Below, piece after piece: positions 4,951 to 41,239 of a DNA stretch of 62,581 bases; position 1 is the stretch's first letter, and each line of letters begins with the position of its first letter. The DNA comes from Rickettsiales bacterium (GTDB lineage: Bacteria > Pseudomonadota > Alphaproteobacteria > Rs-D84 > CACZYB01). The notes beneath the pieces were generated by a model, which saw only the letters and a list, made by a program, of their open reading frames with translations, searched no databases and was not told where the DNA came from. The stretch covers positions 1 through 62,581 of the forward strand of contig JAISGI010000036.1 of the NCBI GenBank assembly GCA_031263095.1. Direction: 5' to 3'. The translations under genes and the position numbers were made by a program.

Positions 4951-5664
4951 ATGAAACTTACTTATACGGAGAAAATGAAAGTGAACGAAAATATAGTGGC
5001 AATCGACGGACCCGCGGGCGTTGGAAAAGGCACGCTGACCAGGAATTTATGCAACAAGTACGGCTTCGTCGGCCTAGACACCGGAAGCCTTTATAGGGCG
5101 ATAACACTCTACCTTATGCGCCAAGGGTACGATATGGAGAAAATCGACCCGGCGCGTGCGGTCGAGGAGACAAAAAAGATTTCCGACAATCACGAGATAC
5201 TGAAATACGCCGCCGACCCGGAAATCCGCTCCGCCCTCAATTCGAAATATGTATATGTCGTGGCCGACAACGCACCGTTGAGGGAGGTTATAAAGGACTA
5301 CCAGGTCGACTTCGGCCGCAGCCCGCCGCCTCTTGCAAACGGTACACCCGCCAAGGGAGCCGTGGTCGAGGGCAGGGATATAGGAACGATAATCTTCCCC
5401 GACGCGCCCGTGAAAATATTTCTGACCGCCGCGCCGGAAATCAAGGCAAGCCGACGCTACGACGAATACGTGTCCAAGGGCATAGAGGCCGACTATAAAA
5501 GCATACTTGCCGAAATGGTCAAACGCGACGAGGCCGACCGCACACGGAAAGTCGGAACCCTTGTCCCGGCAAAGGACTCGCTTATACTCGACACCTCGGA
5601 CAAGTCGCGCGAAGAGGTGCTTGCCTGGGCCTCGAAAGTCGTCGAAGAACGCCTGAAACTATAA
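4951..5664 (+). CDS. cmk: cytidylate kinase (alternative start ATG 4975)
   Basis: P-loop IAIDGPAGVGKGT, LDTGSLYRA and GRDIGTIIFPDA match Cmk. Confidence 0.9.
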   Translation: MKLTYTEKMKVNENIVAIDGPAGVGKGTLTRNLCNKYGFVGLDTGSLYRAITLYLMRQGYDMEKIDPARAVEETKKISDNHEILKYAADPEIRSALNSKYVYVVADNAPLREVIKDYQVDFGRSPPPLANGTPAKGAVVEGRDIGTIIFPDAPVKIFLTAAPEIKASRRYDEYVSKGIEADYKSILAEMVKRDEADRTRKVGTLVPAKDSLILDTSDKSREEVLAWASKVVEERLKL

Positions 5665-5676
5665 AAATCAAAGCTG

Positions 5677-5754
5677 AAAAAAGGCCAGGGTTCCCCCGGC
5701 CTTTTTTCTCCTACTCCCAATTGAAAATATCGCGAAGCGAGATTTTCAATTGAG
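5677..5754. repeat. bipartite hairpin element, copy E1 (terminator hairpin plus CAATTGAAAA palindrome)
   Basis: The element consists of three parts. First is the hairpin A6-GGCCAGGG-ttc-CCCCGGCC-T6. Second is the linker CTCCTACTCC. Third is the hairpin CAATTGAAAAT-N13-ATTTTCAATTG. The right arm encodes the last codons and stop (CTC AAT TGA) of the minus-strand gene that ends at 5746. Confidence 0.75.
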
Positions 5755-6398
5755 CCTATATATCGAGTACGTAATCTGCTTCGCCGGGTCGTACATTACA
5801 TCCGTTTGAGCAACACCCGGAGTCGTGGTCTTGTCCCAAGTCCAAAATTTATAAACCGCATAGCCGGCAGAGGAGGTGCTAAGCACAATCTCGGCATTGC
5901 TCCCGGTGCCAGTCCATTCGAGGCCGTACGCTATGATAGAGCCGCTGCTTGTAAAAAAGTTGCTCCCGTCGCCTGTCCAGCCAAGCGAATATGCGAATTC
6001 CCGGTCGAAAATGGCCACGCGCGAAACCCTCTGGTTCTGCGCTCCAATCGCAAGGTCGAAACGATAGATTCCAAGGCCAAGCACGCCTCTGCCAAGCACG
6101 GTGCCAAAATTTCCGGCCGCACTGGCGACAAGCTGCCAGCGGCTGACGGCCGGCGTCCCGATACAGGACGAAACCTCGCCAGCTGAGATACTCGGACTGC
6201 CAAGCTTTGGTGCCAGGAATTGGCATGCCTCGGACACGGGCACGGTCGCCCCCTCAGGGCATAGCTCCGGCGTAAAACACGCCGAACAGGTATAATAGTT
6301 TGATGAGTTAGAGTTGTTGGCAGATAGTAGAAGAAGTGCGAATGCTAGGTATTTAGCCTTTTGCCCCCCCCCGTACACTTTTTGTTCATATATGTCAT
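5746..6398 (-). CDS. family-A small secreted Cys-containing protein, copy A1; phase-variable and out of frame with its ATG at the assembled G9
   Basis: ATG ACA TAT ATG AAC AAA AAG TGT ACG-G9 reads MTYMNKKCTGGGKRLNT-stop. The long ORF (..QKAKYLAFALLLLSANNSNSSNYYTCSAC.. to ..IYRLN) joins that ATG only at G10 or G7. A GTG at 6378 is in frame but sits far from the SD. Confidence 0.7.
6364..6372 (-). repeat. poly-G tract (G9 on the coding strand) in the 5' codons of A1
   Basis: C9 counted directly on the + strand. Confidence 0.95.
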
Positions 6399-8744: not shown

Positions 8745-9164
8745 TTATTCATATTTAATTACATAATTCAAGGTTGCCGCCGGCTGCTTGTCCGCGAACG
8801 CGCCGCGCATGTCCGGAGTGCGCTCACCGACAATCGCACGAAGTGCGTTGTACCGCGCGTCCTTTGGAATCTCGGCCCCGTCGCACCAAAGATAGCCCGA
8901 GGGCAATCGCGATGCCGACCATACCGAAACCATACCGACCGGTAATGAGGAAGAGCTTCCCGCGGACATTGTACCGCCGCTTGCCGTACCGCTTGCGTCG
9001 GCCGATTGCTTCTTCGAGCTTGCCGCCCGCTTGGACTTCTTGGCCGCGCGCACGGATTTTTTCGAAGAGCTGGCCCGCGCCGACTTTTTCTTCGCCGCCA
9101 TAGCCTCGTCCGCATTGAACATCGTCAAAAGGGCGAGCACAAGAACCGTCGGAAATATCCTCAT
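8745..9164 (-). CDS. small secreted protein: Lys/Ala/Ser-rich basic spacer plus a phage tail-collar-like domain
   Basis: It starts with the signal peptide MRIFPTVLVLALL and a basic spacer (AKKKSARASSSKKSVRAAKKSKRAASSKK). The C-terminal segment VGMVSVWSASRLPSGYLWCDGAEIPKDARYNALRAIVGERTPDMRGAF fits the tail-collar pattern (W..P.GWL.CDG...Y..L...G...PD.RG). Confidence 0.55.
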   Translation of the reverse strand: MRIFPTVLVLALLTMFNADEAMAAKKKSARASSSKKSVRAAKKSKRAASSKKQSADASGTASGGTMSAGSSSSLPVGMVSVWSASRLPSGYLWCDGAEIPKDARYNALRAIVGERTPDMRGAFADKQPAATLNYVIKYE

Positions 9165-9232
9165 TTTTCCCATCCATAACCTTGGAGGCAATCATACCCT
9201 CGAACTTTCGCATTCGCAAGGAAAATATTTAA

Positions 9233-12057: not shown

Positions 12058-12673
12058 ATGAACAAAAATCGTACGGGGGGGGGCAAATAAGTATTTAGCT
12101 ACTGCGCTTCTCCTGATTTCCGCCAACCACGCAAACTCCACCAATTATTATACATGTACAAGCTGCGGCGAGAACCGCCTGTTCACACTGGCCGAGGCGA
12201 CAAAATGCCTTGGCGCCGACACCTCCGGCAAATGGGAAAAGATTGTCGAGGCGGAGAACGACCTGGCAAACTCCGGCAAATACAACCGGACAGGAACTCT
12301 CCCGGCGGGAATTTACCGGCTCGAGTCATACAACCGACATTACGGCCTCGGCTCGGCCACGATACAGATTTCCGGCACGAAATACTATGGCATAAACAAC
12401 TCCATTCATCAGGATACGGCAAGGATAGACATAATGAATTCCGCGGTCGCAACCGGAAACGATAGACCGGAGCATAGCGCTTTCAACTGCTCGGTGGATA
12501 TTCCGGCATATTACACTGACGGCCATTGCAACGACGCAGGCATAGCCGAGGCCGACCTTGCCAAACACAATATAAACATAGATTGGAACACTTGGCGCCA
12601 AGTACCCGGCATAACTGCCGCCAATACCGAGACCTGCCTCGGCTGCGCCGCGATTTATAGGTGGAAAGAATAA
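12058..12673 (+). CDS. family-A small secreted Cys-containing protein, copy A2; phase-variable, OFF at G9
   Basis: ATG AAC AAA AAT CGT ACG-G9 reads MNKNRTGGGK-stop. At G8 or G11 it reads MNKNRTGGANKYLATALLLISANHANSTNYYTCTSC... through to ...CAAIYRWKE. The downstream frame is open from the tract to 12673, and track ORF 12434..12673 is its tail. Confidence 0.75.
12075..12083 (+). repeat. poly-G tract G9 in the 5' codons of A2
   Basis: Counted directly. Confidence 0.95.
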
Positions 12674-12760: not shown

Positions 12761-13304
12761 ATGTTATATATGAACAAAAAGTGTACGGGGGGGGGCAAAT
12801 AAGTATCTGGCTTTAGCGCTTCTCCTAATATCGACTAACTCTCAATCTTCAAATTATTATACTTGTACCAATTGCCTAGTGCCCGAGCTGTGCGCCACAG
12901 GAGCTACGGCCGACTTCGCCAAGTATGATAAAGCGCTGAGCAGGGACGAAGCCGCCGCCGCATTCGGCACTCCGGCCAAGACGCGCTGGCAACTCGTCGC
13001 AAGCGGCAACGTCGATTCCCAACCCTATTCTATATCCTCATCCGGGGTGTATAGGATAACTGAGCGATGGTCCACCGGATTCCAGCCAAACGAATATCGC
13101 GATTCGTTCGCTTTCGCGCTCTCTTCCTCCGACGGTCAAGTAAAAATGGAGGGATGCCCACAAGTGAATCAAGGCAACGCACTTATTAGCCTCTGCAACG
13201 GCCAAGGCTCGCAAGTGCCGGGGATTTCAGACCAAGACATCGACGCCGAACTCCCACCATTTTCAGGAAGCGGATACAAATGGCAGCTATACAGGTTGCA
13301 ATAA
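12761..13304 (+). CDS. family-A small secreted Cys-containing protein, copy A3; phase-variable, OFF at G9
   Basis: ATG TTA TAT ATG AAC AAA AAG TGT ACG-G9 reads ...CTGGGK-stop. At G8 it reads ..TGGANKYLALALLLISTNSQSSNYYTCTNCLVPELCATG... through to YKWQLYRLQ, which is track ORF 12879..13304. Confidence 0.75.
12787..12795 (+). repeat. poly-G tract G9 in the 5' codons of A3
   Basis: Counted directly. Confidence 0.95.
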
Positions 13305-13313
13305 AAGACAGTG

Positions 13314-13360
13314 TGCCCGGCTGCACCGCAGTTTATAGGTGGAAAAGCCAAGGTTTCACC
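13314..13360 (+). pseudogene. orphan 3'-end remnant of an A2-like gene
   Basis: TGCCCGGCTGCACCGCAGTTTATAGGTGGAAAAGCCAAGGTTTCACC aligns with the A2 3' end at 12635-12682 (TGCCTCGGCTGCGCCGCGATTTATAGGTGGAAAGAATAAGGTTTGTCA), with a 1-nt indel. Confidence 0.6.
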
Positions 13361-13373
13361 TATATAAAAACCG

Positions 13374-13456
13374 AAAAACTCCGACGGCATGTACGGCGGA
13401 GTTTTTCTCATTCTTCCAATTGAAAAAGACGGACTACGCGAAGTATTTTTTAGTTG
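13374..13456. repeat. bipartite hairpin element, copy E2 (second hairpin degenerate)
   Basis: The first hairpin is AAAAACTCCG..CGGAGTTTTT and the linker is CTCATTCTTC. The second hairpin is CAATTGAAAAA-N17-ATTTTTTAGTTG. It overlaps the stop codon of the NUDIX gene. Confidence 0.6.
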
Positions 13457-13857
13457 CCCAGCACTCCATAGAAAGCCGCCTCTCCGATATCCGCCCAAGT
13501 GGCGTACTGACCCGAAAACACGCTCTCTATCATAGGTATTTCATCCATATCGTAAAAGGATTTATCTATAAATTCCGCCTCGAACATGAAGACTATCTCG
13601 TGCCCTTGCTTTCCCTCGAAAATGAACAGGCTCTCTTGCGCGCCAAGCTGCCTTCCGATGGTTATCTCCGCCCCGATTTCCTCCTTGAATTCGCGCGCAA
13701 GGGCGGCCCGCATAGGCTCCCCGAACTCGATTCCGCCGCCAAGCATACGGAAATATCGGCTGTTCTTTACCTTGTCTTCCCATATGTTGACAAGATACTT
13801 CCCATCCGCGCGTCTGATAGCCGCAACGACAATGGGTCGGATTGCATTTTCTATCAC
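13450..13857 (-). CDS. NUDIX hydrolase
   Basis: Nudix box GGGIEFGEPMRAALAREFKEEIG. Confidence 0.88.
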   Translation of the reverse strand: MIENAIRPIVVAAIRRADGKYLVNIWEDKVKNSRYFRMLGGGIEFGEPMRAALAREFKEEIGAEITIGRQLGAQESLFIFEGKQGHEIVFMFEAEFIDKSFYDMDEIPMIESVFSGQYATWADIGEAAFYGVLGN

Positions 13858-15819: not shown

Positions 15820-16443
15820 TTAGAATGCATAGCGCAAGCCGACCTCCGCTACGCTCTTCCTGATCTTCATGTCGTCGGCGCCGGACTGCGAGGCGCTTCC
15901 CTTGGTGTCGAGGAATTTGTATGCTATATCGACGTTCAAGTTCTCAGATACGTCGAAGGCAAGCCCGGCCATTACGCTCCACGCGAACTTGGCTCCGTGA
16001 GCCACTTCGTCGCTGGCTTCAAACACTACGTTCCCGCTCGCATCATCGGTTTCCGTGACGTCGAGCTTCATATATGTGTCGACCAAGCCAAGCCCTATGC
16101 CTATGAACGGAGTGAAATTGAGCCCTGTCGGAATGTCCCAGTACCCGTTCACCATATAGGACAGATAGTGTGCCTTGAACTTGTCCTGCTCGTTCGTCGT
16201 CCCGTCGTCGTACGAGTAGGTATTGCTGGTGGTGAAGCCGTACCCAAACTCGAACTCGCTCCTGAACTCGCCCGTCTTGACGCCATAGGCAATGCTTATG
16301 CCAAGGTCATCAAGCCTGATGGGCTGGTCGCCATACCTGGCCCAATTATAAGGCAGGCGCGCGCCGACATACTGTTTCACTTCGGCCGAAACCGCAGTGG
16401 AAAAGAACGCCGCCGCAAACGCTATAAGGGATAGTTTCTTCAT
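15820..16443 (-). CDS. outer-membrane beta-barrel protein (OmpA-barrel / opacity-like family)
   Basis: Signal peptide MKKLSLIAFAAAFFSTAVSA, alternating beta-strand pattern, C-terminal ..GLRYAF. Confidence 0.75.
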   Translation of the reverse strand: MKKLSLIAFAAAFFSTAVSAEVKQYVGARLPYNWARYGDQPIRLDDLGISIAYGVKTGEFRSEFEFGYGFTTSNTYSYDDGTTNEQDKFKAHYLSYMVNGYWDIPTGLNFTPFIGIGLGLVDTYMKLDVTETDDASGNVVFEASDEVAHGAKFAWSVMAGLAFDVSENLNVDIAYKFLDTKGSASQSGADDMKIRKSVAEVGLRYAF

Positions 16444-16564
16444 CTTCCTTCCTTTCTTTTTTGTGTCCAAACGCCGTCGGCGCCGGAATAAATTGTAGCG
16501 TTTCAAGGCCGCATTGCCAAGTAGAACATAAGCCTAGGACGCACCGCCTACCACAAAAATCAAA

Positions 16565-16644
16565 GCGAAGAAATCCCGCGGTCTCCGTGGGATTTCTTCT
16601 CACTATTCCAATTGAAAAAGCCGCTTGCGGATTTTTCAATTGAG
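16565..16644. repeat. bipartite hairpin element, copy E3
   Basis: The first hairpin is GAAGAAATCCCGCGG-tct-CCGTGGGATTTCTTC and the linker is TCACTATTC. The second hairpin is CAATTGAAAAA-gccgcttgcgg-ATTTTTCAATTG. Its right arm carries the A4 codons CTC AAT TGA. It is roughly 80 percent identical by eye to E4, in direct orientation. Confidence 0.8.
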
Positions 16645-17212
16645 TTTATACAGTGCTCCATACGCCGCATTCCCAACCTGAAAGTCCGCCTTGCTTATAT
16701 TGGGAACGTTGATTATATCGGAAGTTGCACGCGCCTGCACGAGCATGTTATAGCCTCCTTTGCCCGTTTCGTATATCCAGGAATTGTATCCATAACCAGT
16801 AGAATCTTGGAAATAGTGCAATATGAGAGAATTGACCGGATTTTCAAGCACGACTCCCTCTATATGGAAATTGGAACCGTCTATTGTCGAGACAAGCATG
16901 TATATCCCGGGCGCGATGTCCGGAATGTCCATTCTGCCAAGCGCGCCTATATCCTTTTTATTCTCGCGAACTTTCGTCCATCTGGAAAAGGCCGGACTGC
17001 CAAGACAATCCGTGAACTCCTCAATGCTAAGCACGGCATTGAGCTTGCAGTCCGCGCTGCGTCCAGCATTGACACAAGCCCCCGGCACGGCGCAAGCTGT
17101 GCAGGTATAATAATTAGATGATTGAGAGTTGTTGGCAGATAGTAGGAGAAGCGTTGCGAGTACTATTACTCTATTTGCCCCCCCCCGTACGCTTTTTGTT
17201 CATATATGTCAT
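16636..17212 (-). CDS. family-A small secreted Cys-containing protein, copy A4; phase-variable, OFF at G9
   Basis: ATG ACA TAT ATG AAC AAA AAG CGT ACG-G9 reads ..RTGGGK-stop. At G8 it reads ..TGGANRVIVLATLLLLSANNSQSSNYYTCTACAVPGAC... through to GALYKLN, which is track ORF 16636..17088. Confidence 0.75.
17178..17186 (-). repeat. poly-G tract (G9 on the coding strand) in the 5' codons of A4
   Basis: C9 counted on the + strand. Confidence 0.95.
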
Positions 17213-17308
17213 TATTGTCTTTCTCCTTTGGTTAGACTTATATATTATACCGCATTATAAAGATAAAAGAAAGTAAAAATTCAGATTTTGCCCAGCCAAA
17301 CATAAAAA

Positions 17309-17387
17309 GCGAAAAAATCCCGCGGTCTCCGTGGGATTTTTTCACATATTTCCAATCGAAAAAGAGCTTAGCGACTTTTCGATTGAG
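17309..17387. repeat. bipartite hairpin element, copy E4
   Basis: The first hairpin is GAAAAAATCCCGCGG-tct-CCGTGGGATTTTTTC and the linker is ACATATTTC. The second hairpin is CAATCGAAAAAG-N9-CTTTTCGATTG. It starts directly after the rlpA stop codon. Confidence 0.8.
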
Positions 17388-18584
17388 CTAGTTCACATTC
17401 CACTTGAGCTCGTTGCCATCCTTTAGGATAACACGCGAACCATCTATACCCTTGGCACCGATTGCTTTCTGGACACGCTCGGCCTCGGTCTTGGACGGAA
17501 ATTCGCCAAGCCGGACTTTGTAGAGCGTGTTGCCGTTCTGCACCGCCTTGAATATCTTGACCGGCGCCACACCGACAAGCTTGTTCTTCATCGCCTCGGC
17601 CTTTTCATAGCTGGAGTACGCCGCAACCTGCACGAAATATTCCCCCTCCTCCGGCGAACGCCGAGCAGCGGATGCAGGAGCCACAACGGCCGCAACCTCC
17701 TCTATTACAGGTGTCGGAGCTGGCACTGGAGCGACCGGAGTCGCGGTAAAGTTGTCATGCCCGACATGGCTCTCGCGTGTATAGTTCGGCTGCATCTCGA
17801 CCACGCCGCCATCGGACGCAGGCAGAGGTCTGACCTCCGCAGCAGCTGGGTCGGGCACCGCGCTCTCGGTTCTGGCAAGCGTTATGTCCGGCGAGTATAT
17901 GTCGGTGTTGCCACCCGCAAGGGCAAGCTCTTTCAGGTTCCGGCTCTGCTCGGGCAGTATCTCGACCTTCACGCGCGCCGAGCCCTTCTGCTTGACGCCG
18001 AGCACATCCGCCGCAGCGGACGACAGGTCGATGATTCGGTCGCGCGCAAACGGCCCGCGGTCGTTGATTTTGATAGTAAGCGAAGCACCGTTCTCAAGGT
18101 TCGTCACACGCACAAGCGAGGGCAAGGGAAGCGTCCTGTGCGCAGCAGTGTATTTTGTGGTATCGAAGACTTCGCCATTGCTGGTTGACTTGCCGTGGAA
18201 GTCCGGCCCGTACCACGAGGCGATTCCAACCTCGCTGTACTCGTAGTTCTCATGCGGATAATAGGGAACTCCGTCGATAAGGTAAGGATTACCGATTTTA
18301 TAAGTCCCGCCCGAGGCAAGCGGAGCCGCAGGAGCCGCGGGTGCTGCAGGAACGGGTGCCTGGGTCGGCGCAGATTCTACTGGCTCGGCCGCCTGTGGAA
18401 CCGAGCTGAACTCATCCTCGGTCGGCTGGGCGAAGTTGTCGTCATAGCTCTGCATATCGTTGTAAGAGGGCTCGGCCGCAGCGGGCGCGGGTTTGGTCGC
18501 CGAACGTATCGGCACTTCGCTTCCACGGTATTCGGCGCACGCGGCAAGGACGAACAAAGCTATAAACCAAAGATTCTTTTTCAT
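17388..18584 (-). CDS. rlpA: septal ring lytic transglycosylase RlpA (DPBB plus SPOR domains)
   Basis: Lipobox-like signal MKKNLWFIALFVLAAC, DPBB segment GIASWYGPDFHGKSTSNGEVFD..AAHRTLPLPS..V.NL.NG, and a C-terminal SPOR domain (YFVQVAAYSSYEKAEAMKNKL). Confidence 0.88.
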   Translation of the reverse strand: MKKNLWFIALFVLAACAEYRGSEVPIRSATKPAPAAAEPSYNDMQSYDDNFAQPTEDEFSSVPQAAEPVESAPTQAPVPAAPAAPAAPLASGGTYKIGNPYLIDGVPYYPHENYEYSEVGIASWYGPDFHGKSTSNGEVFDTTKYTAAHRTLPLPSLVRVTNLENGASLTIKINDRGPFARDRIIDLSSAAADVLGVKQKGSARVKVEILPEQSRNLKELALAGGNTDIYSPDITLARTESAVPDPAAAEVRPLPASDGGVVEMQPNYTRESHVGHDNFTATPVAPVPAPTPVIEEVAAVVAPASAARRSPEEGEYFVQVAAYSSYEKAEAMKNKLVGVAPVKIFKAVQNGNTLYKVRLGEFPSKTEAERVQKAIGAKGIDGSRVILKDGNELKWNVN

Positions 18585-19158: not shown

Positions 19159-19163
19159 ATCCC

Positions 19164-19189
19164 TTGACAAATCATGGGGGGGGTAGAAT
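19164..19189 (+). promoter_or_regulatory. candidate promoter with a G8 tract inside the spacer
   Basis: TTGACA (19164-19169), then aatcat-G8 (a 14-nt spacer), then TAGAAT (19184-19189). It lies about 55 nt upstream of the SD and ATG of the gene starting at 19243. Confidence 0.45.
19176..19183 (+). repeat. poly-G tract G8, intergenic, inside the promoter spacer
   Basis: Counted directly. Confidence 0.95.
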
Positions 19190-19242
19190 GCGGTTTGTCC
19201 AGAAAAATTGGATGCAATGTATAACAAAACGAAAGGAAAGAA

Positions 19243-19671
19243 ATGTATAATAAGATAATGCTTGCGGCGGTTGCTGCCATAGCGGTTTCAAGCGGAGCAT
19301 GGGCGGTAAATAAATCAGGCAGGCCGACTAATGCGCCAGCCAAAACCGTAACCGTCAAGTACGGTATAGTAGTAAGCAAGGAATTCGACTTCGGTGCGAA
19401 AGGTTCATGCAATAATGCCACATTCGGCGACCCGGCCAGAGGCGTAAATAAGGAATGCTACAGCGGCCTGGGTGAAAAAATAGCCAGCGAGGGCAAAGGT
19501 TTCACTCGCCCGGACTGCTGCACGGCAGTATTATATGGCAAGCTGACGTCGAAATCCGTACCGATGGGAAGTGCCTGCAACAACGCGACCTTCGGCGACC
19601 CAGCCAAAGGATATAAGAAAGCTTGCTACATTGACGGCCGCAAAGTCGCCGATGAAGGTGGCGAAATCTAG
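19243..19671 (+). CDS. small secreted Cys-rich protein with an internal duplication
   Basis: Signal peptide MLAAVAAIAVSSGAWA. The motif [KG]GSxCNNATFGDPA[RK]G..K.CY occurs twice. Confidence 0.65.
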   Translation: MYNKIMLAAVAAIAVSSGAWAVNKSGRPTNAPAKTVTVKYGIVVSKEFDFGAKGSCNNATFGDPARGVNKECYSGLGEKIASEGKGFTRPDCCTAVLYGKLTSKSVPMGSACNNATFGDPAKGYKKACYIDGRKVADEGGEI

Positions 19672-19684
19672 TAATATACAGACC

Positions 19685-19765
19685 AAAAAAATCCCGGGAT
19701 TTCCCCGGGATTTTTTACACATATTCCACCAATCAAAAGTACCCCAAAGGGGCAACTTTTGATTG
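19685..19765. repeat. bipartite hairpin element, copy E6
   Basis: The first hairpin is AAAAAAATCCCGGG-attt-CCCCGGGATTTTTT and the linker is ACACATATTCCAC. The second hairpin is CAATCAAAAGT-N14-ACTTTTGATTG. Confidence 0.75.
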
Positions 19766-19771
19766 AATTTT

Positions 19772-20473
19772 CTAGAACTGCACTCCGTATTTAACGCCGA
19801 ACACATCGTCGTTATCATCGTTCCCGATGTCGGTCTTGTAATAGACGCTCGCGGCCGAGTTCGCGCTGATTACGAGGTTGCCCTGCACCACGAACCAGAA
19901 GCTGTCGTCAATTCCCTTCTGCGTGTGCTGCTCGTCGTCAAGGGCAAGATAGCCCGAAAACTTGGGCGTGAATTGGTACAGGCCCTCAAGCACGAAATGG
20001 ATTATCGAATCATGATACCCCGACGCTGACAAGCGGTCGAACGTAATCTTTCCGTCATAGGTGTACTTGTCTTTCACCTTGCCGCCACGTACGCCGATTC
20101 CCCAGACGCTCGTATCTCCGGTAGCCGAAACGTCGTCGCTTATGGCGCCGCCTACATGGGCAAGTACATCGAGAAGTTGCCCGCCGCGGTTCAAGGCACT
20201 ATAGTTCGCGCCCAAGTCCCAGTTGCCTACTCCGTCGTCGCGACCCGAGTTCTTGCTCCAGCGGTCGAGGTCGAATCCGAACGACATCGCAAACTTGTTG
20301 GAGAATCCGTATCCGAATGTCTCGAGCGCCTGCAGCCTGTCGTCCGATTTGTTCAGATCCGTTATGGAATAGAACTTGCCTTCCGACGGACGGTAGAACG
20401 GATTTTCGATTCCTACGCCCGCATTGGCGGAAACGGAAGCCAGCAAAAGCCCCGCTGTAAGAAGTTTATTCAT
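19772..20473 (-). CDS. outer-membrane beta-barrel protein
   Basis: Signal peptide MNKLLTAGLLLASVSANA, beta-strand periodicity, C-terminal ..VKYGVQF. Confidence 0.7.
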   Translation of the reverse strand: MNKLLTAGLLLASVSANAGVGIENPFYRPSEGKFYSITDLNKSDDRLQALETFGYGFSNKFAMSFGFDLDRWSKNSGRDDGVGNWDLGANYSALNRGGQLLDVLAHVGGAISDDVSATGDTSVWGIGVRGGKVKDKYTYDGKITFDRLSASGYHDSIIHFVLEGLYQFTPKFSGYLALDDEQHTQKGIDDSFWFVVQGNLVISANSAASVYYKTDIGNDDNDDVFGVKYGVQF

Positions 20474-25615: not shown

Positions 25616-26902
25616 ATGAAAGCTCTCAAATTCCTGCTGTTGCTTACCTTTTTCTCCTCCTGCGAGGACACGGGCGAATACGTGGTCGAATATACGCAGA
25701 TACAGCCGGGGAGTCCCGCCGCGCCCGCCCAGCGCCCCGTGCCCAAGGTGCCTGTCGTCCCGATATACGAGCGTAAAATCCCGCGCACGTTCGAGAATGT
25801 TGAGAAGTTCAATCTGGAAATCGAGGCGCGCTGCCGCGTTGATTGGGCAAGCCAGCACCTGATCTCGTCCGAGCCGTTCTCACGCGATAGCTTCAAGCTC
25901 GAGCGTACGGACAAGGGCGATCCCCTGCCCACGCTGAATGTGGAAAACCTGTCGTTCAAGGACAAGACCGCGTCCGAGGTAATGGGTATGCTTCTCAAGA
26001 ATACCGGTATCCGCCTGAACGCAACCGATATATTTACCAAAAGGCTTGAGGCAACGGGCATCGGAGGCAACCTGGCCCAAGTCCTCGACCTCGTAGCCTC
26101 AATGGGCAGCGTATATTATACATACGACAGTCGCACGAAAAGCCTCGAACTGAAGCGCCACGCGTCTTTCAATCTTCAGGTGCCCCTTTCGGACGAGGCT
26201 GTCTTGGCGGTCGAAGACGCACTCCGCGGCGCCGACATCGACGGTATAGTTGTGGACTGGGAGGATAGGACGCTGATATTTAACGGCGATTCGGTGGTCG
26301 AGGATAGGGCAAGGAACACCATAGCCAAACTCTCGCTAGAGAATTATCTGATAGCCTACGACGTCAACGTCTTCCGCGCCTATCCCAAAACCGGCGGGTC
26401 GATAGAGTGGCAGCATATCCTGAAAGCGTTCGATAAAGGCTCGGTCAAGCTCTCGCAAAAGGGGGTCATCGGCCGCGCGCTGGTCGTGGGGCCTAACTTC
26501 AACGCAAGCTCGCTGGCCGAGTTTTTGTACCCTAGGGCCGACACAGCGCTAATCTCCGCCGGAACGTTCGTTATGCCAGAACGGTGGCAGGGCCGCTTCG
26601 ACATAGGGCGCTGCACGCGCGATGTCGAGTACGAGACCGACTTGGGCGTACTGGCCGAGGCTCGCTTTACCGCAGACAAGGATACGGTCGGACGCATAGA
26701 CGCGACAGTGGTGCTAAGGACTGCCGCCGGAGACATAGCCAAATATTCCACCCCCGTGCGCCTCGGCAACAACATACTGATAATCGGAATCCCGACCCAG
26801 TACTTCGCGTCCGGCACTACAACCGAGCTTCCCCCGACGACCGAACTTATAGTCCTGATAAGCCCGCGCATAATCCGCATAGTAAAGCCGGAGGCTAAAT
26901 GA
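25616..26902 (+). CDS. secretin-family-like outer-membrane lipoprotein
   Basis: Lipobox LTFFSSC. An N0-like segment (NLSFKDKTASEVMGMLLKNTGIRLNATD) is followed by an N1-like segment (LQVPLSDEAVLAVEDALRG..IVVDWEDRTLIFNGD). The C-terminal tail TELIVLISPRIIRIV is typical of secretins. Confidence 0.55.
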   Translation: MKALKFLLLLTFFSSCEDTGEYVVEYTQIQPGSPAAPAQRPVPKVPVVPIYERKIPRTFENVEKFNLEIEARCRVDWASQHLISSEPFSRDSFKLERTDKGDPLPTLNVENLSFKDKTASEVMGMLLKNTGIRLNATDIFTKRLEATGIGGNLAQVLDLVASMGSVYYTYDSRTKSLELKRHASFNLQVPLSDEAVLAVEDALRGADIDGIVVDWEDRTLIFNGDSVVEDRARNTIAKLSLENYLIAYDVNVFRAYPKTGGSIEWQHILKAFDKGSVKLSQKGVIGRALVVGPNFNASSLAEFLYPRADTALISAGTFVMPERWQGRFDIGRCTRDVEYETDLGVLAEARFTADKDTVGRIDATVVLRTAAGDIAKYSTPVRLGNNILIIGIPTQYFASGTTTELPPTTELIVLISPRIIRIVKPEAK

Positions 26903-28146
26903 GCTTCGAATCCCTAGTCGCTTTCAAGTACCTCAAATCCAAACGCAAGGACGGGTTTATCTCGATAATAACCTGGCTCTCGCTTATAGGCATAATGCTT
27001 GGCGTCGCGACATTGGTGATAGTGATGTCCGTAATGAACGGCTTCCGCGAGGAGATGATGGCCAAGATAATGGGCATGAACGGCCACGTGATTGTCATGC
27101 CAAAGTACGGCAAGGTCTCCATGCCGGAGTATAAGGAAATCAAGGCAAAAATAGAAAGTCTGCTGCCCTCCCACATCTCCCAACCTCCGGTTCCTATGGT
27201 CGAGGCGCAGGTAATGGTAAGCAGCGCTAACGCCTCCGGCGGCGCGATTATGCGCGGCATTGCGCTTGACGATATGGCCTCCATAAAACCCTTGGCCAAG
27301 GGACTGCTCGAAACCAACATTTCCCAAATCACCGCGGACGAGGTGCTGATAGGCTACCAGCTCGGCAACAAGCTTGGCCTCCTCGCCGGTGACAACATAA
27401 CCATAACCTCGCCAAGGGGGAACCAGACCGCGTTCGGCACCATCCCGCGCATGAAAGCCTTCGCCATAGGAGCAACGTTCAAAAGCGGCATGTCCATATA
27501 CGACAGCACATTCGTCTTCGCACCATTGGCGCTTATGCAGAACTTCCTCGACATGGAGGGCAAGGTCTCCCATATCGAGGTGTTCCTGAAGAACCCCGAC
27601 GCCTCACGCACCGCCGCACAAGCGTTGGCAGCTAACCTCCCCGGCTATCGGCTCTATACCTGGCAGGAGCAAAACTCAAGCTTTGTAAGCGCCCTGAACG
27701 TCGAGCGCAACGTCATGTTCATAATTCTGACGCTTATAATCTTGGTCGCAAGCTTCAATATAATCTCAAGCCTTGTCATGCTGGTCAAGGACAAGTCAAG
27801 GGACATAGCCGTCTTCCGCACTCTCGGCGCCACGCGCGGCTCGGTAATGCGGATATTCATAATCGCAGGCGGAGCCATAGGCGTTGCGGGCACAATCCTA
27901 GGCCTCTCCTTGGGCCTTGTGGTAAGCTATAATATAGAGTGGGTACGCCAGCTTTTCCAAACCCTGACCGGCACGAAATTGTTCCCCGACGACGTGTACT
28001 TCCTCTCCGAACTGCCAAGCCGCGTCGACTACGCCGAGGTCATGGGCGTCGGCGCCATGTCACTCTTGATTTCGTTCTTGGCCACAATCTACCCATCCCG
28101 CAAAGCCGCGAAACTCCTGCCCGTGGAGGTGCTTAGATATGAGTAG
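26899..28146 (+). CDS. lolE: lipoprotein-releasing ABC transporter permease (LolC/LolE family)
   Basis: N-terminus FESLVAFKYLKSKRK.GFISIITWLSLIGIMLGVA, a periplasmic MacB-like domain, and a C-terminal FtsX-type transmembrane bundle. ATGA overlap with the upstream gene. Confidence 0.9.
   Translation: MSFESLVAFKYLKSKRKDGFISIITWLSLIGIMLGVATLVIVMSVMNGFREEMMAKIMGMNGHVIVMPKYGKVSMPEYKEIKAKIESLLPSHISQPPVPMVEAQVMVSSANASGGAIMRGIALDDMASIKPLAKGLLETNISQITADEVLIGYQLGNKLGLLAGDNITITSPRGNQTAFGTIPRMKAFAIGATFKSGMSIYDSTFVFAPLALMQNFLDMEGKVSHIEVFLKNPDASRTAAQALAANLPGYRLYTWQEQNSSFVSALNVERNVMFIILTLIILVASFNIISSLVMLVKDKSRDIAVFRTLGATRGSVMRIFIIAGGAIGVAGTILGLSLGLVVSYNIEWVRQLFQTLTGTKLFPDDVYFLSELPSRVDYAEVMGVGAMSLLISFLATIYPSRKAAKLLPVEVLRYE
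28123..28145 (+). repeat. 23-bp direct repeat, copy 1 (lolE 3' end)
   Basis: GTGGAGGTGCTTAGATATGAGTA is identical to 28265-28287. Confidence 0.95.
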
Positions 28147-28173
28147 CTCCAAGCAAACCATACAAAACAAGCC

Positions 28174-28258
28174 GTGCGAAACCTGCGGCGTGTACGTAGG
28201 TTTCGCACACCTATTCCCCACTCGAAAAAGCGAGCACAGCGCTGATTTTTCGATTGAG
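28174..28258. repeat. bipartite hairpin element, copy E7, inserted between lolE and lolD
   Basis: The first hairpin is GTGCGAAACCT-N13-AGGTTTCGCAC, with no flanking T-run. The linker is ACCTATTCCCCAC. The second hairpin is TCGAAAAA-N16-TTTTTCGA, followed by TTGAG. Confidence 0.75.
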
Positions 28259-28264
28259 TATTCA

Positions 28265-28287
28265 GTGGAGGTGCTTAGATATGAGTA
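28265..28287 (+). repeat. 23-bp direct repeat, copy 2 (lolD start region)
   Basis: GTGGAGGTGCTTAGATATGAGTA. It contains the lolD ATG at 28281. Confidence 0.95.
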
Positions 28288-28964
28288 ATATATTGGAGCT
28301 CCGCGGTATCCACAAATCCTTCGGCAAAGGCGAGTCCAAGGCGACAATCCTCGACAACGCCTCGCTCGAGCTGAAACAGGGTGAAGCCGTGGCGCTTACG
28401 GGCCCAAGCGGCTCCGGCAAGTCGACGCTCCTCTACATAGCAGGCCTGCTCGACAACGCGGACAAGGGCGACATTATAATAGACGGCGCCGACTGCGCCA
28501 AGCTTGACGATACCGCCCGCACGCTCCTAAGGCGCGAGAAGCTGGGCTTCGTGTACCAACAGCATAACCTTTTCGCGGATTTCACCGCGCTCGAGAATGT
28601 GGCCATCCCGCTGATGATAGCCGGACGCCCGCACGAGGAGGCGCGCGCCACAGCCGCCAAATACCTTAAAAAACTTGGGCTCTCCCACCGCGAGAATGGC
28701 CGCGCTACCGAGCTTTCCGGCGGCGAAGCGCAAAGGGTGGCCATAGCCCGCGCGCTTGTCTTGAAACCCAAAATTCTGCTTGCGGACGAGCCGACGGGAA
28801 ACCTCGACCCCAAGAACTCCGAACACGTCTTCGAAATGCTCATATCCCTTGCAAACGAGGAGGGAATGGCAGCGCTTGTGGCGACCCATAACCCCACGCT
28901 TGCAAAGCGCCTCGCCCGCCAGGTCTCGGTCATAAACGGCAGACTAAGCGCCGCCAAACAATAA
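28281..28964 (+). CDS. lolD: lipoprotein-releasing ABC transporter ATP-binding protein
   Basis: Walker A GPSGSGKST, ABC signature LSGGEAQRVAIARAL, Walker B ILLADEPTGNLD. Confidence 0.92.
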   Translation: MSNILELRGIHKSFGKGESKATILDNASLELKQGEAVALTGPSGSGKSTLLYIAGLLDNADKGDIIIDGADCAKLDDTARTLLRREKLGFVYQQHNLFADFTALENVAIPLMIAGRPHEEARATAAKYLKKLGLSHRENGRATELSGGEAQRVAIARALVLKPKILLADEPTGNLDPKNSEHVFEMLISLANEEGMAALVATHNPTLAKRLARQVSVINGRLSAAKQ

Positions 28965-31200: not shown

Positions 31201-32329
31201 CTATTGTATCGCCCTGACGGCATTTACGCACTCGTCGATTTCCTTGAAAAGCTTGTCCACCTCAAGCATGCCGACAACGCCCGCCGCGCCCGAGGCAAGT
31301 CCGCCGACCGCCGCCACGCCCGAGGTTATCATTCCCCCGACGCCCGAGCCAAGCTTGCCTATGCCCTTTGCTTCCTGATGGGCGAGCTTGCTCTTGACCT
31401 CGGCATCGGCCAAGGCATAGTTCTTGCCGCGATTATAATCCGCGTCTTGCAGATACTTCGCATACGCGTCATCGTCCCAAGTCCACGAAGCCATGTCCAC
31501 CGCCAGTCTCGAGTTGTCGTTGTAAGTAGCTATCAGGTTGCCCAAGGTCGAGCCATAAAGCACCGGCTTGTCGCTCGTGCAGGTGGTGGAAGCAATGGGC
31601 GCGAACTTGACGGAGGTCTCGGTAAAGGTTATGTCATCGGACGAGCAGCCCTCTATGCTGTCGTGCGCGTCGAGTATCTGGGCGGCAAGCTCGACTTGGT
31701 CGTCAAGAAGACTGTCCATATCCCTGTCTATGTCCGCTTTACTTTTGTAGTTGGCCATTACCGCGCCCTTCATTGTTTCGGGAAGCGAACCGAGCGCCGC
31801 GCCCATATCGGCGTTGTTGCCCTCTTTTATGAAAGCGTCCTCTCTGGCAATCGAGGCTTTCGCATGCTCCTCTTTCGCCTTTTTAAGATCGCTCGAGTTT
31901 TTAATCTGCCCGGCAAGGTTCAGGCCGCCGCCGATAAGGGACGCCGCACCGCCGCCTATTGAAAAGCCAAGCGCAACCTGAAGCGTCTGCTTGTCGCGTA
32001 TTTTCCCGCACGCGGTTTTCGCTTTGTTGATAAGGGCCCAAGTCTCCGCGCCCGCACCCACGCTTGCAACGGCTATTCCGACATCCCCGGCCGGAGCTTC
32101 GTAGGTCGAAGCCACAGGCTCCGCCGCAACGCTTTCCGCCGTGGGAACAGCCGCAGGATTGTTGTGTATAGCGCCGCCGCCGGCTGCAACCGCGCCACTG
32201 GAGCGCCTGGAAACAGGAGCCTTTGGCCGGTTGTCCCGCCTCTGCGCTCCGGCTTCACCGCCGATTGCCGAGATTAAAACTAAAAGGGAAAGACTATACG
32301 CCCCCCCCCGTGCACAGTTTGTTCGTCAT
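31201..32329 (-). CDS. family-B secreted glycine-zipper / coiled-coil protein, copy B1; phase-variable, OFF at G9
   Basis: ATG ACG AAC AAA CTG TGC ACG-G9 reads MTNKLCTGGGV-stop. At G8 it reads MTNKLCTGGAYSLSLLVLISAIGGEAGAQRR... and joins track ORF 31201..32115. It is paralogous to the gene at 39461..40588: both have the ACGKI motif, Gly-zipper segments, and a C-terminal ..EIDEC..A.. tail. Confidence 0.7.
32301..32309 (-). repeat. poly-G tract (G9 on the coding strand) in the 5' codons of B1
   Basis: C9 counted on the + strand. Confidence 0.95.
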
Positions 32330-34752: not shown

Positions 34753-35808
34753 TTATCTCCTGCTCAAACCGGCTGCCATAGTCGGCACATCGCCGGGCTC
34801 GAATCCATAGTGGGCAAGCCAGCGCACATCGTTCTCGAAGAACCGCCGCATGTCGTTTATGCCGTACTTGAGCATGGCGATTCGCTCTATCCCCGTGCCG
34901 AACGCGAAACCCTGGTACACCTCCGGGTCAACCCCCACCGCGCGAAGGACGTTAGGGTGCACCATCCCGCAGCCGAGAATCTCGAGCCACCGCTTGCCCT
35001 CGCGCCCGATTTTAAGCTCGCCGTTCTCGAAAGTGCAGCGTATGTCCATCTCGGCCGACGGCTCGGTAAAGGGGAAAAAGTGCGGCCTGAACTGCACCGG
35101 CACATCGTCCGTCTCGAAAAACGCCTTGAGGAAGTCGATAAGACAACCCTTCAGGTGCGACATGTTCACTCCGCGGTCGATGTATAGTCCCTCGATTTGC
35201 TGGAACATAGGGGAATGCGTGGCGTCCCAGTCGCGCCGATACACCCGCCCCATGGTGATGATTTTGATAGGCGCGCCATGCTCCTCCATCGCGCGGATTT
35301 GCACGTCCGAAGTCTGCGTGCGCAAGAGGTTCCCACCCTCGATAAAGAACGTATCCTGCGTGTCCCGCGCCGGATGCTCGGGCGGAAAGTTTAGCGCGGC
35401 GAAATTGTGGAAATCGTCCTCGATGTCCGGCCCGTCCGCCATCTTGAATCCCATTGCGCCGAAGATTTGAACAATCTCGTCCCTGACCTGCGAAAGCGGA
35501 TGAATCCGCCCGCCCGCAGTGTTCTCGTATGAAAGCGAAACGTCCATAGGCGAGGCCGCAAGCCGAGCGTTTATTTCGACGGCCTCAAGCTCCTCGCGCC
35601 GGGATTCAAGCGCCGAGGTTATTTCCTCGCGAGCAAGGTTTAAGGTCGCACCAGCGGCCTTGCGCTCCTCCTCCGGCAACCCGCCAAGAGTCTTGAGTTC
35701 AAGCGTCAACGCGCCCGACTTCCCAAGCACTCCGACACGCAAATCCTCGACTTCGCGCACAGTTTTCGCAAGCGCAACTTCGGAAAGTATTTTATCTTTG
35801 TCAAACAT
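34753..35808 (-). CDS. pheS: phenylalanine--tRNA ligase alpha subunit (a duplicated upstream in-frame start exists at 35856)
   Basis: Class II aaRS motifs (HPARDTQDTFF, MGRVYRRD, GFAFGTGIERIAM). Confidence 0.95.
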   Translation of the reverse strand: MFDKDKILSEVALAKTVREVEDLRVGVLGKSGALTLELKTLGGLPEEERKAAGATLNLAREEITSALESRREELEAVEINARLAASPMDVSLSYENTAGGRIHPLSQVRDEIVQIFGAMGFKMADGPDIEDDFHNFAALNFPPEHPARDTQDTFFIEGGNLLRTQTSDVQIRAMEEHGAPIKIITMGRVYRRDWDATHSPMFQQIEGLYIDRGVNMSHLKGCLIDFLKAFFETDDVPVQFRPHFFPFTEPSAEMDIRCTFENGELKIGREGKRWLEILGCGMVHPNVLRAVGVDPEVYQGFAFGTGIERIAMLKYGINDMRRFFENDVRWLAHYGFEPGDVPTMAAGLSRR

Positions 35809-35876
35809 GTTCTTCCTCCAATAAAAATCGGAAAGTATTTTATCTTTGTCAAACATGTTCTTCCTCCAATAAAAAA
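35781..35876. repeat. 2 x 48-bp tandem duplication covering the pheS SD, ATG and first 9 codons
   Basis: Units 35781-35828 and 35829-35876 are identical at 47 of 48 positions. Confidence 0.95.
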
Positions 35877-39460: not shown

Positions 39461-40588
39461 CTATAGGGCCTTCGCCGCTTTCTGACACTCTTCTATCTCT
39501 TTCTCAAGCTGCGAGAATTGGGCAATGCCTATGCCTCCGGTGATGGCCGATGCCAACCCGCCAGCAGTCGCAAGGCCAGCGGTTATAATGCCGCCCGTCC
39601 CGGTCGCAAGCTTGCCAAGACCCTTTGGCTCTGGCCTGCCGCCGGCCTTTATTATGCCGTCTTTTTTGGCCAGCTCGGACAGTCTTTCGACAACACCCTG
39701 TTTTAATGTATCGAACTGTACTTTGCTTTCGACGATATCATCCTCCTTGAAATTTTGGAAGAAACCTTCGGGTAGCGTACCCGTAAGCTCAGAATTCGAA
39801 CTATTGTACACGCATGAGGCGGAGTACTTGACCCGTATCGAAGCTGTTACAAGTATGCCATATGTTAAAGTCTCGTCATAACTATCCAAAGCTTCTCTTA
39901 GTGATTTATAAACTTTACCGCAATCCATCTCATTACCAACAATTCCTCTGATCTTATTGGCTTCCTCATTGACATCCATTCTAATATCGCGGACAGAGGC
40001 AAGACACTCATCGATAGTAATCTCCTCGCAATTATTGGCTATGTAGTAGGAGAAAAATCTGATGTCGTAGTAATCATAATCACTATCATCATAGAAATAC
40101 CTATTTATATAGTATGCCAAGTATTCGGCGTCAAATCCAAGCCCCTCGGCGTCGCCTCCCTCCTCCTCGGCCTTCTTCTCGTCAAACCTGTTCTTCACCT
40201 GCCCGACGAAGTTGAGGCCGCCCGCAAGGGTCGAAACGCCGCCGCCCGCGACCCCGCCAATCATAAGGCCTTTAATTTGCCTAAGGTCGATTTTGCCGCA
40301 CGCGGATTTTGCCTCTCCGGAAGATTGCTGAGCTTGGGCAAGCTTGGCCTCCGAGTCCGACAGGCTTCGCCTTAGCCGGGCGATTTCGGCGTCCCTGTCT
40401 ATCGCCTGCTGCTGAAGCCTTAGGATTTCGCCGGAGTCGGCCGAGGGCTGGACTATTGGTTGGCTTGCGCCGGAGCTCCCGGGCGACCCGCGCGCGCGTT
40501 GCGCTCTTCCGGCCGACGCGCCTGCGGATACAAGGGTGAAGATAGCCAGAAAGACCAGGCTATCCGCCAATCTTCCACCCCCCCCCAT
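39461..40588 (-). CDS. family-B secreted glycine-zipper / coiled-coil protein, copy B2; the poly-G tract includes the start codon and is in frame at G9
   Basis: AT-G9-T reads ATG GGG GGG GGT GGA.., giving MGGGGRLADSLVFLAIFTLVSAGASA (a signal peptide). A weak SD (AGGA) lies 4 nt upstream. The upstream ATG at 40605 would join only at G10. Confidence 0.7.
   Translation of the reverse strand: MGGGGRLADSLVFLAIFTLVSAGASAGRAQRARGSPGSSGASQPIVQPSADSGEILRLQQQAIDRDAEIARLRRSLSDSEAKLAQAQQSSGEAKSACGKIDLRQIKGLMIGGVAGGGVSTLAGGLNFVGQVKNRFDEKKAEEEGGDAEGLGFDAEYLAYYINRYFYDDSDYDYYDIRFFSYYIANNCEEITIDECLASVRDIRMDVNEEANKIRGIVGNEMDCGKVYKSLREALDSYDETLTYGILVTASIRVKYSASCVYNSSNSELTGTLPEGFFQNFKEDDIVESKVQFDTLKQGVVERLSELAKKDGIIKAGGRPEPKGLGKLATGTGGIITAGLATAGGLASAITGGIGIAQFSQLEKEIEECQKAAKAL
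40578..40586 (-). repeat. poly-G tract (G9 on the coding strand) overlapping the B2 start codon
   Basis: C9 counted on the + strand. Confidence 0.95.
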
Positions 40589-40642: not shown

Positions 40643-41239
40643 CTAAATATTCTTGCGCCCCCTAAGAGCCTCTTCGATTGTGCCCGAGTCGAGATAGTCA
40701 AGCTCCCCGCCGATGGGCACCCCGTGCGCAAGCTCGGTAATCTTCACGCCCGTATCCTGCACAAGTTGGGCAATGTAATGTGCGGTAATCTTGGCGTCAA
40801 TAGTGGCGGGCAGGGCAAGCACGACCTCTTCGATTCCCTCGCCCGCGATTCGCTCCGCAAGACCCGAAAGGTTCAAGTCCTTGGGCTCCACCCCGCTTAT
40901 GGCGGACAAAACGCCGCCGATAACGTGATAGCGCCCCTTGAAGAACCCACCTCTCTCGAACGCCCAAAGCGAGGTTATGTCCGCAACCACGCACAAAATC
41001 CGACTGTCCCGGCTCGCGTCCCGGCATATCGAGCATGGCGAGCAGGTGTCGAAGTTCCCGCACACCGGACACTTCGTTATGTCCGCCGCAACCTTGGCAA
41101 GCGCCTCGATAAGAGGCAAAAGCTTGTCTTCGCGGTGGGAGATAAGACTGATTGTGGCCCGCGTCGCCCCGCGCGCGCCGAACCCCTGGATTTTCGAGAG
41201 TACGGAAATAAGCTCCTGTATCGGCCCGTTCTTATCCAT
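40643..41239 (-). CDS. recR: recombination protein RecR
   Basis: Zinc finger CPVCGNFDTCSPCSIC and a Toprim-like region (ILCVVADITSLWAFER). The start was moved to MDKNGPIQELI. Confidence 0.93.
   Translation of the reverse strand: MDKNGPIQELISVLSKIQGFGARGATRATISLISHREDKLLPLIEALAKVAADITKCPVCGNFDTCSPCSICRDASRDSRILCVVADITSLWAFERGGFFKGRYHVIGGVLSAISGVEPKDLNLSGLAERIAGEGIEEVVLALPATIDAKITAHYIAQLVQDTGVKITELAHGVPIGGELDYLDSGTIEEALRGRKNI

Follow-up and report, generated by a model that had tools for sequence, protein, structure and literature searches.

Repetitive extragenic palindromic (REP) elements have been credited, in one account of them (PMC5082802), with stabilising mRNA, with terminating transcription and, if they lie no more than 15 nt from a stop codon, with stalling ribosomes. 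In an alphaproteobacterium, RIMEs and Sm-repeats have been annotated as repeats between genes whose secondary structure is conserved (PMC2573895). Here we describe a lineage-restricted element of the same kind in contig JAISGI010000036.1 of a Rickettsiales bacterium, analysed at its full length of 62,581 nt and called the window below. Two of its copies, E3 and E4, stand in direct orientation on either side of a single gene, A4, which is predicted to encode a secreted beta-rich protein of an orphan family. An earlier note on this DNA took the arrangement as a sign that A4 is a cassette which recombination between the two copies brought in or can remove. Our preferred reading, to which we give a probability of roughly 60%, is that E3 and E4 are terminator modules at the 3' ends of neighbouring genes, not a dedicated mobile cassette, and that A4 is a contingency gene.

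Like REPs, bacterial interspersed mosaic elements (BIMEs), RIMEs and Sm-repeats, the element is a short multi-copy palindrome found just 3' of genes, with two hairpins in a fixed mosaic. It differs from them in having no sequence similarity to them and no family in Rfam (none at the gathering threshold, noise only at E <= 1), and in that one of its hairpins has the form of a bidirectional terminator with A and T tracts. Unlike in the case of REPs and BIMEs, no transposase of the REP-associated (RAYT) type was seen among the approximately 55 open reading frames (ORFs) of the window that were scanned for domains. To our knowledge REPs make no target duplications, whereas one copy here, E6, is flanked by a duplication of 23 bp. 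What is unusual for an element of this kind is that it is always paired with a hairpin of canonical terminator form, that all copies have one orientation and that the target duplication at E6 is long.

The QMITE1 and QMITE2 repeats of Coxiella form stable stems over the last codons of genes, some of them supplying the stop codon, and have direct repeats of 2-11 nt at their insertion sites (PMC5896051). Comparable with these miniature inverted-repeat transposable elements (MITEs), one copy here, E6, is flanked by a target duplication, and in relatives its site is empty. Unlike QMITEs, the element has no recognisable terminal inverted repeats, shows the duplication in one copy of six and at a length of 23 bp, and has one copy that is kept at an orthologous position across distant genomes. 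Further MITEs that overlap the 3' ends of genes are the Correia elements of Neisseria and the Rickettsia palindromic elements.

For A4 the relevant comparison is with simple-sequence contingency loci, such as the poly-G genes of Campylobacter (PMC6321876). As in such loci, A4 and its four paralogues in the window (the A genes, A1 to A5) have a homopolymer tract after the start codon, a shared promoter and leader, and hypervariable mature parts; unlike them, the A family is an orphan one and all five copies are OFF at the tract length found, nine G (G9). The opa genes of Neisseria and the vlp/vsp families of Mycoplasma belong to the same class of loci.

The E3/E4 pair within a family of six

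The stretch 16440-17420 was read on both strands, and a covariance model (R1), built on five copies of the element, was run over the whole window. The two hairpins of each copy are called hp1 and hp2. The features of the locus, in the direction of transcription, are as follows.

17388 to 18584, minus strand: rlpA, gene for a septal-ring lytic transglycosylase lipoprotein (Pfam DPBB_1 and SPOR)
17296 to 17390, minus strand: E4, the bipartite element of rlpA; R1 score 98.6 bits; folding energy -35.3 kcal/mol (z -4.7)
17353 to 17385, minus strand: hp2 of E4, CAATCGAAAAG..CTTTTTCGATTG, followed by the linker
within E4, minus strand: hp1 of E4, a putative terminator read from the sequence, AAAAAATCCCACGGAGACCGCGGGATTTTTT with a T-rich tail
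17213 to 17260, minus strand: promoter and 5' untranslated region (5'UTR) module of A4; -10 TATAAT at 17244-17249, leader AGTCTAACCAAAGGAGAAAGAC holding the Shine-Dalgarno sequence
16636 to 17212, minus strand: coding region of A4, with its reading frame broken in the sequence as it stands; the product is a predicted secreted, beta-rich protein from an orphan family
17178 to 17186, minus strand: G9 tract of A4, codons 6-9; candidate translational phase-variation switch
16552 to 16647, minus strand: E3, the bipartite element of A4; R1 score 102 bits; folding energy -36.9 kcal/mol (z -5.7)
16609 to 16642, minus strand: hp2 of E3, which holds the A4 stop codon
15820 to 16443, minus strand: gene for an outer-membrane beta-barrel protein (Pfam OMP_b-brl) downstream of A4, with its own promoter at 16492-16520 according to a promoter scan

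The 25-mer AAATCCCGCGGTCTCCGTGGGATTT has exactly two sites in the window, 16571-16595 and 17315-17339, both on the plus strand; a chance control in which 3 mismatches were allowed gave 0 matches in 100 shuffles. Around it a repeat finder returned a direct repeat of 74 nt with 81% identity and an offset of 744 nt (16562-16635 against 17306-17379). The longest unbroken identity between E3 and E4 is 25 nt, and divergence over the 74 nt is 19%. Each copy folds into two strong hairpins. Between them there is A4 with its conserved -10/5'UTR module and nothing more. The rlpA stop codon, TAG at 17388-17390, lies 2 nt ahead of E4 hp2, and the A4 stop codon, TGA at 16636-16638, lies 4 nt within E3 hp2. 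The layout had been described correctly in the earlier note: two copies in the same orientation with an identical 25-nt core, only A4 and its promoter module between them, E4 adjoining the rlpA stop and E3 containing that of A4.

E3 and E4 are not a private pair, however. R1 matches the window exactly six times, and all six copies have one absolute orientation. In the sense of the genes, the element consists of hp2, a linker of about 10 nt (GGAAnAnTGnG) and hp1. The former hairpin is a long AT-rich stem, CAATYGAAAA...TTTTCRATTG, with a short GC stem as its cap, a pattern that occurs 4 times against 0 expected. The latter is made of an A-tract, a GC-containing stem, a T-tract and a T-rich tail. 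In E1-E5 the stem of hp1 is 11-15 bp long, includes GC pairs and has the A-tract on its 5' side and the T-tract on its 3' side, which fits the form of an intrinsic terminator; a simple terminator scanner picks up sub-hairpins alone, the T-tract being part of the extended stem. Folding energies of E1, E3, E4 and E5 range from -35 to -42 kcal/mol (z -4.7 to -6.7), and the fold of E2 as a whole element is not significant (-24.4 kcal/mol, z -1.6).

When the copies are compared, 92% of cells are paired (36-57% in slid controls) and 17 of 30 pairs have changed on both sides, a result equalled by 0 of 500 shuffles. For example, CAATTG/CAATTG has become CAATCG/CGATTG in E4 and CAATCA/TGATTG in E5. Such strong compensatory change argues that the structure is under selection. 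Five copies lie at 3' ends of minus-strand genes, with the stop codon either 4-8 nt within hp2 (E1, E2, E3) or ending 2-6 nt ahead of it (E4, E5). Outside the window, the hp2 pattern by itself met unrelated palindromes only in a collection of genome contigs, and neither a specific pattern for the element nor one for the 5' region of the A genes had a match in JGI metagenome contigs. A search of the A4 cassette against plasmids and phages (blastn) gave no match.

There are promoter-like sites for rlpA and for the outer-membrane protein (OMP) gene, and a family-conserved -10 for A4. Since each of the three genes has such a promoter-like site or -10 of its own, they would be separate transcription units, each closed by a terminator. 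We propose that the family consists of lineage-specific bipartite hairpins that serve as 3'-end modules of transcription units. To judge from its form, hp1 would be a bidirectional intrinsic terminator: E4 would terminate rlpA and shield the A4 promoter from read-through, and E3 would terminate A4 and shield the OMP gene downstream. By analogy with REP elements, hp2, being close to the stop codon, may stabilise the 3' end of the mRNA or damp translation. If this is correct, the element will be a useful marker of transcription-unit ends for annotation of this uncultured alphaproteobacterial lineage.

Ownership of the two copies and exchange between them

The C-terminus of RlpA (..GNELKWNVN) is conserved with its homologues, hence E4 begins right after the native stop codon of rlpA. 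Contigs of relatives that we compared are designated L119, L120, L121, L123, L124 and L126. One of these, L124, is a GC-rich contig from a metagenome-assembled genome (MAG) labelled 'Rickettsiales bacterium', and its RlpA is 46% identical to that of the window. R1 has a sole strong match there (50.5 bits, E = 3e-8), on the strand of rlpA and starting 2 nt past its stop codon; the stem of hp2 begins 6 nt past that stop, the linker is the same and hp1 is of the ATCCCA type. Downstream of the element there are a convergent gene and mutL, and the contig has no A gene. Because the element stands right after rlpA even where there is no A gene, we regard E4 as an old element that is rlpA's own.

The earlier note had suggested a search among relatives for an empty site, meaning rlpA followed by a single copy. 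In L124 rlpA does have a single element and no A gene, but this organism is distant and synteny downstream of rlpA is not kept, so that it is not an empty site in the strict sense. No close relative was present in the collections searched, where the best non-self matches are 52-60% identical for RlpA and 62% for LolD, and a scan of GTDB representatives for relatives found nothing.

E3 has a different affiliation. A1 and A4 share their -10, leader and signal-peptide region (92% over 77 nt), and they also share the ...Y(K/R)LN-TGA junction within hp2 and the element's tail, GCTTTGATTTTT. Upstream, the similarity ends at the -10 region, where A1 adjoins a GNAT gene and no element is present. The unit common to A1 and A4 thus starts at the -10 region, ends just beyond the 3' element and includes the downstream copy only. 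Since its paralogue has the same junction of gene and element and no upstream copy, E3 belongs to A4. Among the remaining A genes of the window, A2, A3 and A5 are not bracketed. Most likely, A4 was added in this lineage together with an element of its own.

We suggest the following history. E4 would be a resident at rlpA, and E3 would have arrived with an A gene. Given that the A1/A4 unit is 'promoter, gene, own element' and that rlpA already ended in an element, the bracket would be a by-product of an A unit lying directly downstream of a gene that ends in the same type of element. Two element-bearing genes being neighbours is expected by chance: with five such genes among approximately 36 on the minus strand (an estimate from ORF lists), the probability of at least two element-bearing neighbours is 0.47, and it is 0.85 within the cluster at 5.6-20.5 kb. 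Direct repeats round a gene, in other words, need not mark a mobile cassette.

The two copies probably have exchanged sequence. E3 and E4 are the closest pair overall (74% identity; 41-62% in other pairs), and the similarity is unevenly distributed, with 35 matches of 38 in the hp1 segment versus 32 of 49 in hp2 plus linker (Fisher p = 0.004). The hp1 hairpins themselves are nearly identical, matching at 31 of 33 positions. They have in common an idiosyncratic A.C position of the stem (G.U on the other strand), and the two differences in the stem, out of three mismatches in the segment, make up one compensatory pair. For hp2, the identity of E3 is 74% with E1, 71% with E6 and 68% with E4, and the tail of E3 is the same as that of E1. 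The near-identity of hp1 looks like a short patch of gene conversion, which would have occurred later between copies 744 bp apart. E4 was probably the donor and E3 the recipient, since the form conserved behind rlpA in L124 is the ATCCCA-type hp1. We also considered that the insertion of A4 had duplicated E4 as its target and so produced E3, and rejected this, as hp2, the stop junction and the tail of E3 match the element of A1.

How do these observations bear on the cassette proposed in the earlier note? It would enter and leave by recombination between element copies, for instance as a circle of A4 plus one element, and its deletion would leave one element behind. The direct repeats do surround one self-contained gene, the locus in L124 has rlpA with one element and without an A gene, and the hp1 patch suggests that copies have exchanged sequence. 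In addition, the GC content of the A4 region is 39-51% against 55-64% in its flanks, and the mosaic 3' end of A3 (see below) has its breakpoint at a remnant arm of hp2. Yet a stretch of 25 nt of unbroken identity, within 74 nt that are 19% divergent, is a poor substrate for reciprocal RecA-dependent recombination. Bracketing is not a property of the family either, the single copy of A1 being at its 3' end. E3 resembles E1 in hp2 and tail and so is no duplicate of E4, the adjacency of the two elements is of the kind expected by chance, and no recombinase was found among the ORFs scanned. We consider recombination of this kind quite unlikely. What survives of the earlier claim is the addition of A4 and a probable exchange between the copies; the bracket as a means of entry or exit is not indicated, given that the A1/A4 unit has one copy, E4 is rlpA's and a recombinase was not seen among the scanned ORFs.

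There is also a superficial likeness to an integron cassette array, in which the elements would be attC sites: a structured imperfect palindrome follows each of several co-oriented ORFs, and single genes are flanked by direct repeats. Unlike integron cassettes, however, all six copies lack RYYYAAC and GTTRRRY core sites on both strands, an integrase was not found among the scanned ORFs, and A4 has its own promoter with a conserved -10 and 5'UTR. Moreover, the flanking genes are housekeeping ones (rlpA, and lolCD at E6) and the elements contain terminator-like hairpins with A and T tracts. With neither core sites in the copies nor an integrase among the ORFs scanned, this interpretation is effectively refuted.

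The other copies and the insertion of E6

The remaining members of the family are as follows.

5661 to 5757, minus strand: E1; R1 score 98 bits; at the 3' end of A1 (5746-6398), whose TGA is 4 nt within hp2
13358 to 13461, minus strand: E2; R1 score 66 bits; at the 3' end of a NUDIX gene (13450-13857) that is convergent with A3
19670 to 19770, minus strand: E5; R1 score 86 bits; 6 nt past the stop of an OMP-like gene (19772-20473) that is convergent with gene 19243-19671
28159 to 28261, minus strand: R1 match of E6, 45 bits; a degenerate copy (insert 28146-28264) between lolC/E and lolD
28123 to 28287, minus strand: E6 with its flanks; perfect 23-bp direct duplication GTGGAGGTGCTTAGATATGAGTA at 28123-28145 and 28265-28287

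Of the six copies, two are associated with A genes, and three follow or interrupt genes unrelated to the A family. No copy follows any of the approximately 25 plus-strand genes; E6 lies inside plus-strand genes. The shared orientation of all copies may be due to strand-specific insertion or to the local orientation of genes.

At E6, lolC/E occupies 26899-28146 and the ATG of lolD is at 28281, both being opposite in sense to the element. Each 23-bp duplicate comprises the last codons of lolC (VLRYE-stop) together with the lolD Shine-Dalgarno sequence and start. Two relatives, L120 and L121, have an uninterrupted overlap of lolC and lolD, and the junction in L120, GTGTTGCGCTATGAATAA, has an 8-nt overlap of exactly the form reconstructed for the window. 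The target duplication and the uninterrupted junction in relatives argue that the element family has been insertionally active. A structured terminator-like element has therefore been inserted at least once into an essential operon, with duplication of an overlapping stop/start junction. The hp1 of E6 is without A and T tracts, as expected if there is selection against termination inside the operon.

As to the mechanism of insertion, the two ends of the E6 insert are GCTCCAAGC... and ...GAGTATTCA, and neither is an inverted copy of the other. We recognised no terminal inverted repeats bounding the elements; the inverted repeats present are internal, forming the arms of the hairpins. No integrase, transposase or RAYT-like domain was found among the scanned ORFs and no insertion sequence was seen in the window. 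For the remaining five copies, target duplications do not exceed what chance would give. At E6, the first 8 nt of the left junction (28145-28152, AGCTCCAA) match, as reverse complement, a stretch of lolD just past the right duplicate (28293-28300, TTGGAGCT); this may be a chance match or a trace of the insertion mechanism.

Could the elements be selfish mobile repeats of the MITE or REP type, which landed independently behind rlpA and A4 and whose terminator shape is incidental or tolerated? In that case the bracket would mean nothing for A4. The insertion of E6 into the lol operon, with its duplication and with the uninterrupted junction in relatives, is what one would expect of them, as are the single orientation of the six copies and the overlap with 3' ends of genes, known from Coxiella MITEs (PMC5896051). 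But most copies (five of six) lack a target duplication beyond chance, neither terminal inverted repeats nor, among the scanned ORFs, a transposase were seen, and compensatory change indicates selection on the structure. Also, the same element is in the same place behind rlpA in a genome where RlpA is only 46% identical, and E1 and E3 descend together with their genes. On balance we find this explanation rather doubtful.

A combination of both ideas can be imagined. The element might be a strand-specific mobile 'terminator module' that inserts at or next to stop codons by some unusual mechanism and leaves duplications of about 23 bp, with the dispersed copies providing portable homology through which A units are moved, converted and reshuffled over the chromosome; the order E4-A4-E3 would then be a snapshot of this process. 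We think this improbable as a whole. Should mobility and strand specificity of the element be borne out, it would illustrate in compact form how terminators can spread as repeats.

Several points weigh against our own interpretation of E3 and E4 as 3'-end modules of their genes. Behind rlpA of L126, the closest of the GC-rich relatives, there are other hairpins in place of the element, so the rlpA association is either old and was lost in L126 or was gained twice. In a related organism (L123) genes of the A family are not followed by an element that R1 matches, which would make the link between A genes and the element a young one. The identity in hp1 could come from duplication at the time of insertion instead of later conversion. 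E6 was inserted in an orientation that serves no gene 3' end, and the family may be partly selfish rather than functional. A pure role at gene 3' ends also does not explain why all six copies have one absolute orientation. Finally, termination and insulation are predictions from sequence features.

A4, the A family and its G tracts

The 5' regions of A1-A5 have a common design: ..TATAAT..AGTCTAACCAAAGGAGAAAGAC..ATG, then codons for MNKK(R/C)T and then G9. In A4 a tract of nine G leads to MNKKRTGGGK*, where translation would end after 10 codons; the full product of 188-191 amino acids with a signal peptide requires G8 or G11. At G9 all five genes are out of frame, and while A2-A5 need G8, A1 needs G10. 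A sequencing error is an unlikely explanation of G9, as A1 needs +1 and the other four need -1. A4 would accordingly be switched OFF and ON by slippage of the tract in its signal-peptide region, as a candidate contingency gene. In our opinion a five-member family of surface or secreted proteins that is entirely off at G9, in a segment dense in G/C tracts, is of wider interest than the bracket itself.

After correction of the frame, A1-A4 encode a signal peptide, a conserved NYYTCxxC start and very divergent middles. Their end, ..LY(K/R)L(N/Q), is conserved, with A2 having ..IYRWKE; A5 shares the 5' module only. A word-indexed homology search with A4 returned A4 itself only. In a profile search 27 proteins were found, mostly paralogues from one 'Rickettsiales bacterium' MAG (LBL52_ tags). 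Many of these have been annotated with the same internal start codon, a hint that they are frameshifted as well. The family had no match among Pfam, NCBIfam or PDB sequences. An AlphaFold2 model from 16 sequences is all-beta (predicted local distance difference test score, pLDDT, 73.8), and it has no match among PDB folds, the best E being 0.5; a model from four sequences (pLDDT 41.7) was unusable.

At positions 1-45 of L123 (minus strand), next to an A-like gene, there is an A-family leader, AGTCTAACCAAAGGAGAAGAC..ATG, that is virtually identical to 17213-17240 of the window and one base shorter. The A proteins of that organism are approximately 15-31% identical to those of the window, and still the 5'UTR module has been kept between the genomes. 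With the 5'UTR so much better preserved than the coding sequence, the leader may have a regulatory function.

The 3' end of A3 (13290-13360) is a mosaic. It has an A1/A4-type ..LYRLQ-stop and a remnant of an hp2 arm, CAATAAAAG, followed by an out-of-frame A2-type ..PGCTAVYRWK, a pattern that points to recombination between A paralogues close to their 3' ends.

The 62.6 kb contain nine homopolymer tracts of G or C, each 8-9 nt long:

9-mers: 6364-6372, 12075-12083, 12787-12795, 17178-17186, 32301-32309, 40578-40586, 53965-53973
8-mers: 19176-19183, 46150-46157

Judging by position and frame, the genes with such tracts make up a dense set of candidate phase-variable genes. Gene 39461-40588, for instance, looks OFF at G9 and ON at G10. 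At 19160-19190 a G8 lies between TTGACA and TAGAAT, upstream of gene 19243-19671, and looks like a promoter-spacer switch. The same design is found in L120, with TTGACA..G9..TAAATT at approximately 19505-19530 and TTGACT.C12..TATAAT at approximately 16580-16615. The latter tract differs between two assemblies of one contig, being G9 in L119 versus G12 in L120.

A few other features of the window deserve mention. A perfect 48-bp tandem duplication at 35780-35875 covers the Shine-Dalgarno sequence, start and first nine codons (MFDKDKILS) of pheS, resulting in two in-frame starts. At 41232-43186 two adjoining paralogous genes for NTP-transferases, with stretches of 69-176 nt that are 74-78% identical, represent a tandem gene duplication. 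Amid housekeeping genes, 8745-9191 encodes a small secreted-looking protein of 148 amino acids with a match to the phage tail-collar domain PF07484 (E = 8e-6).

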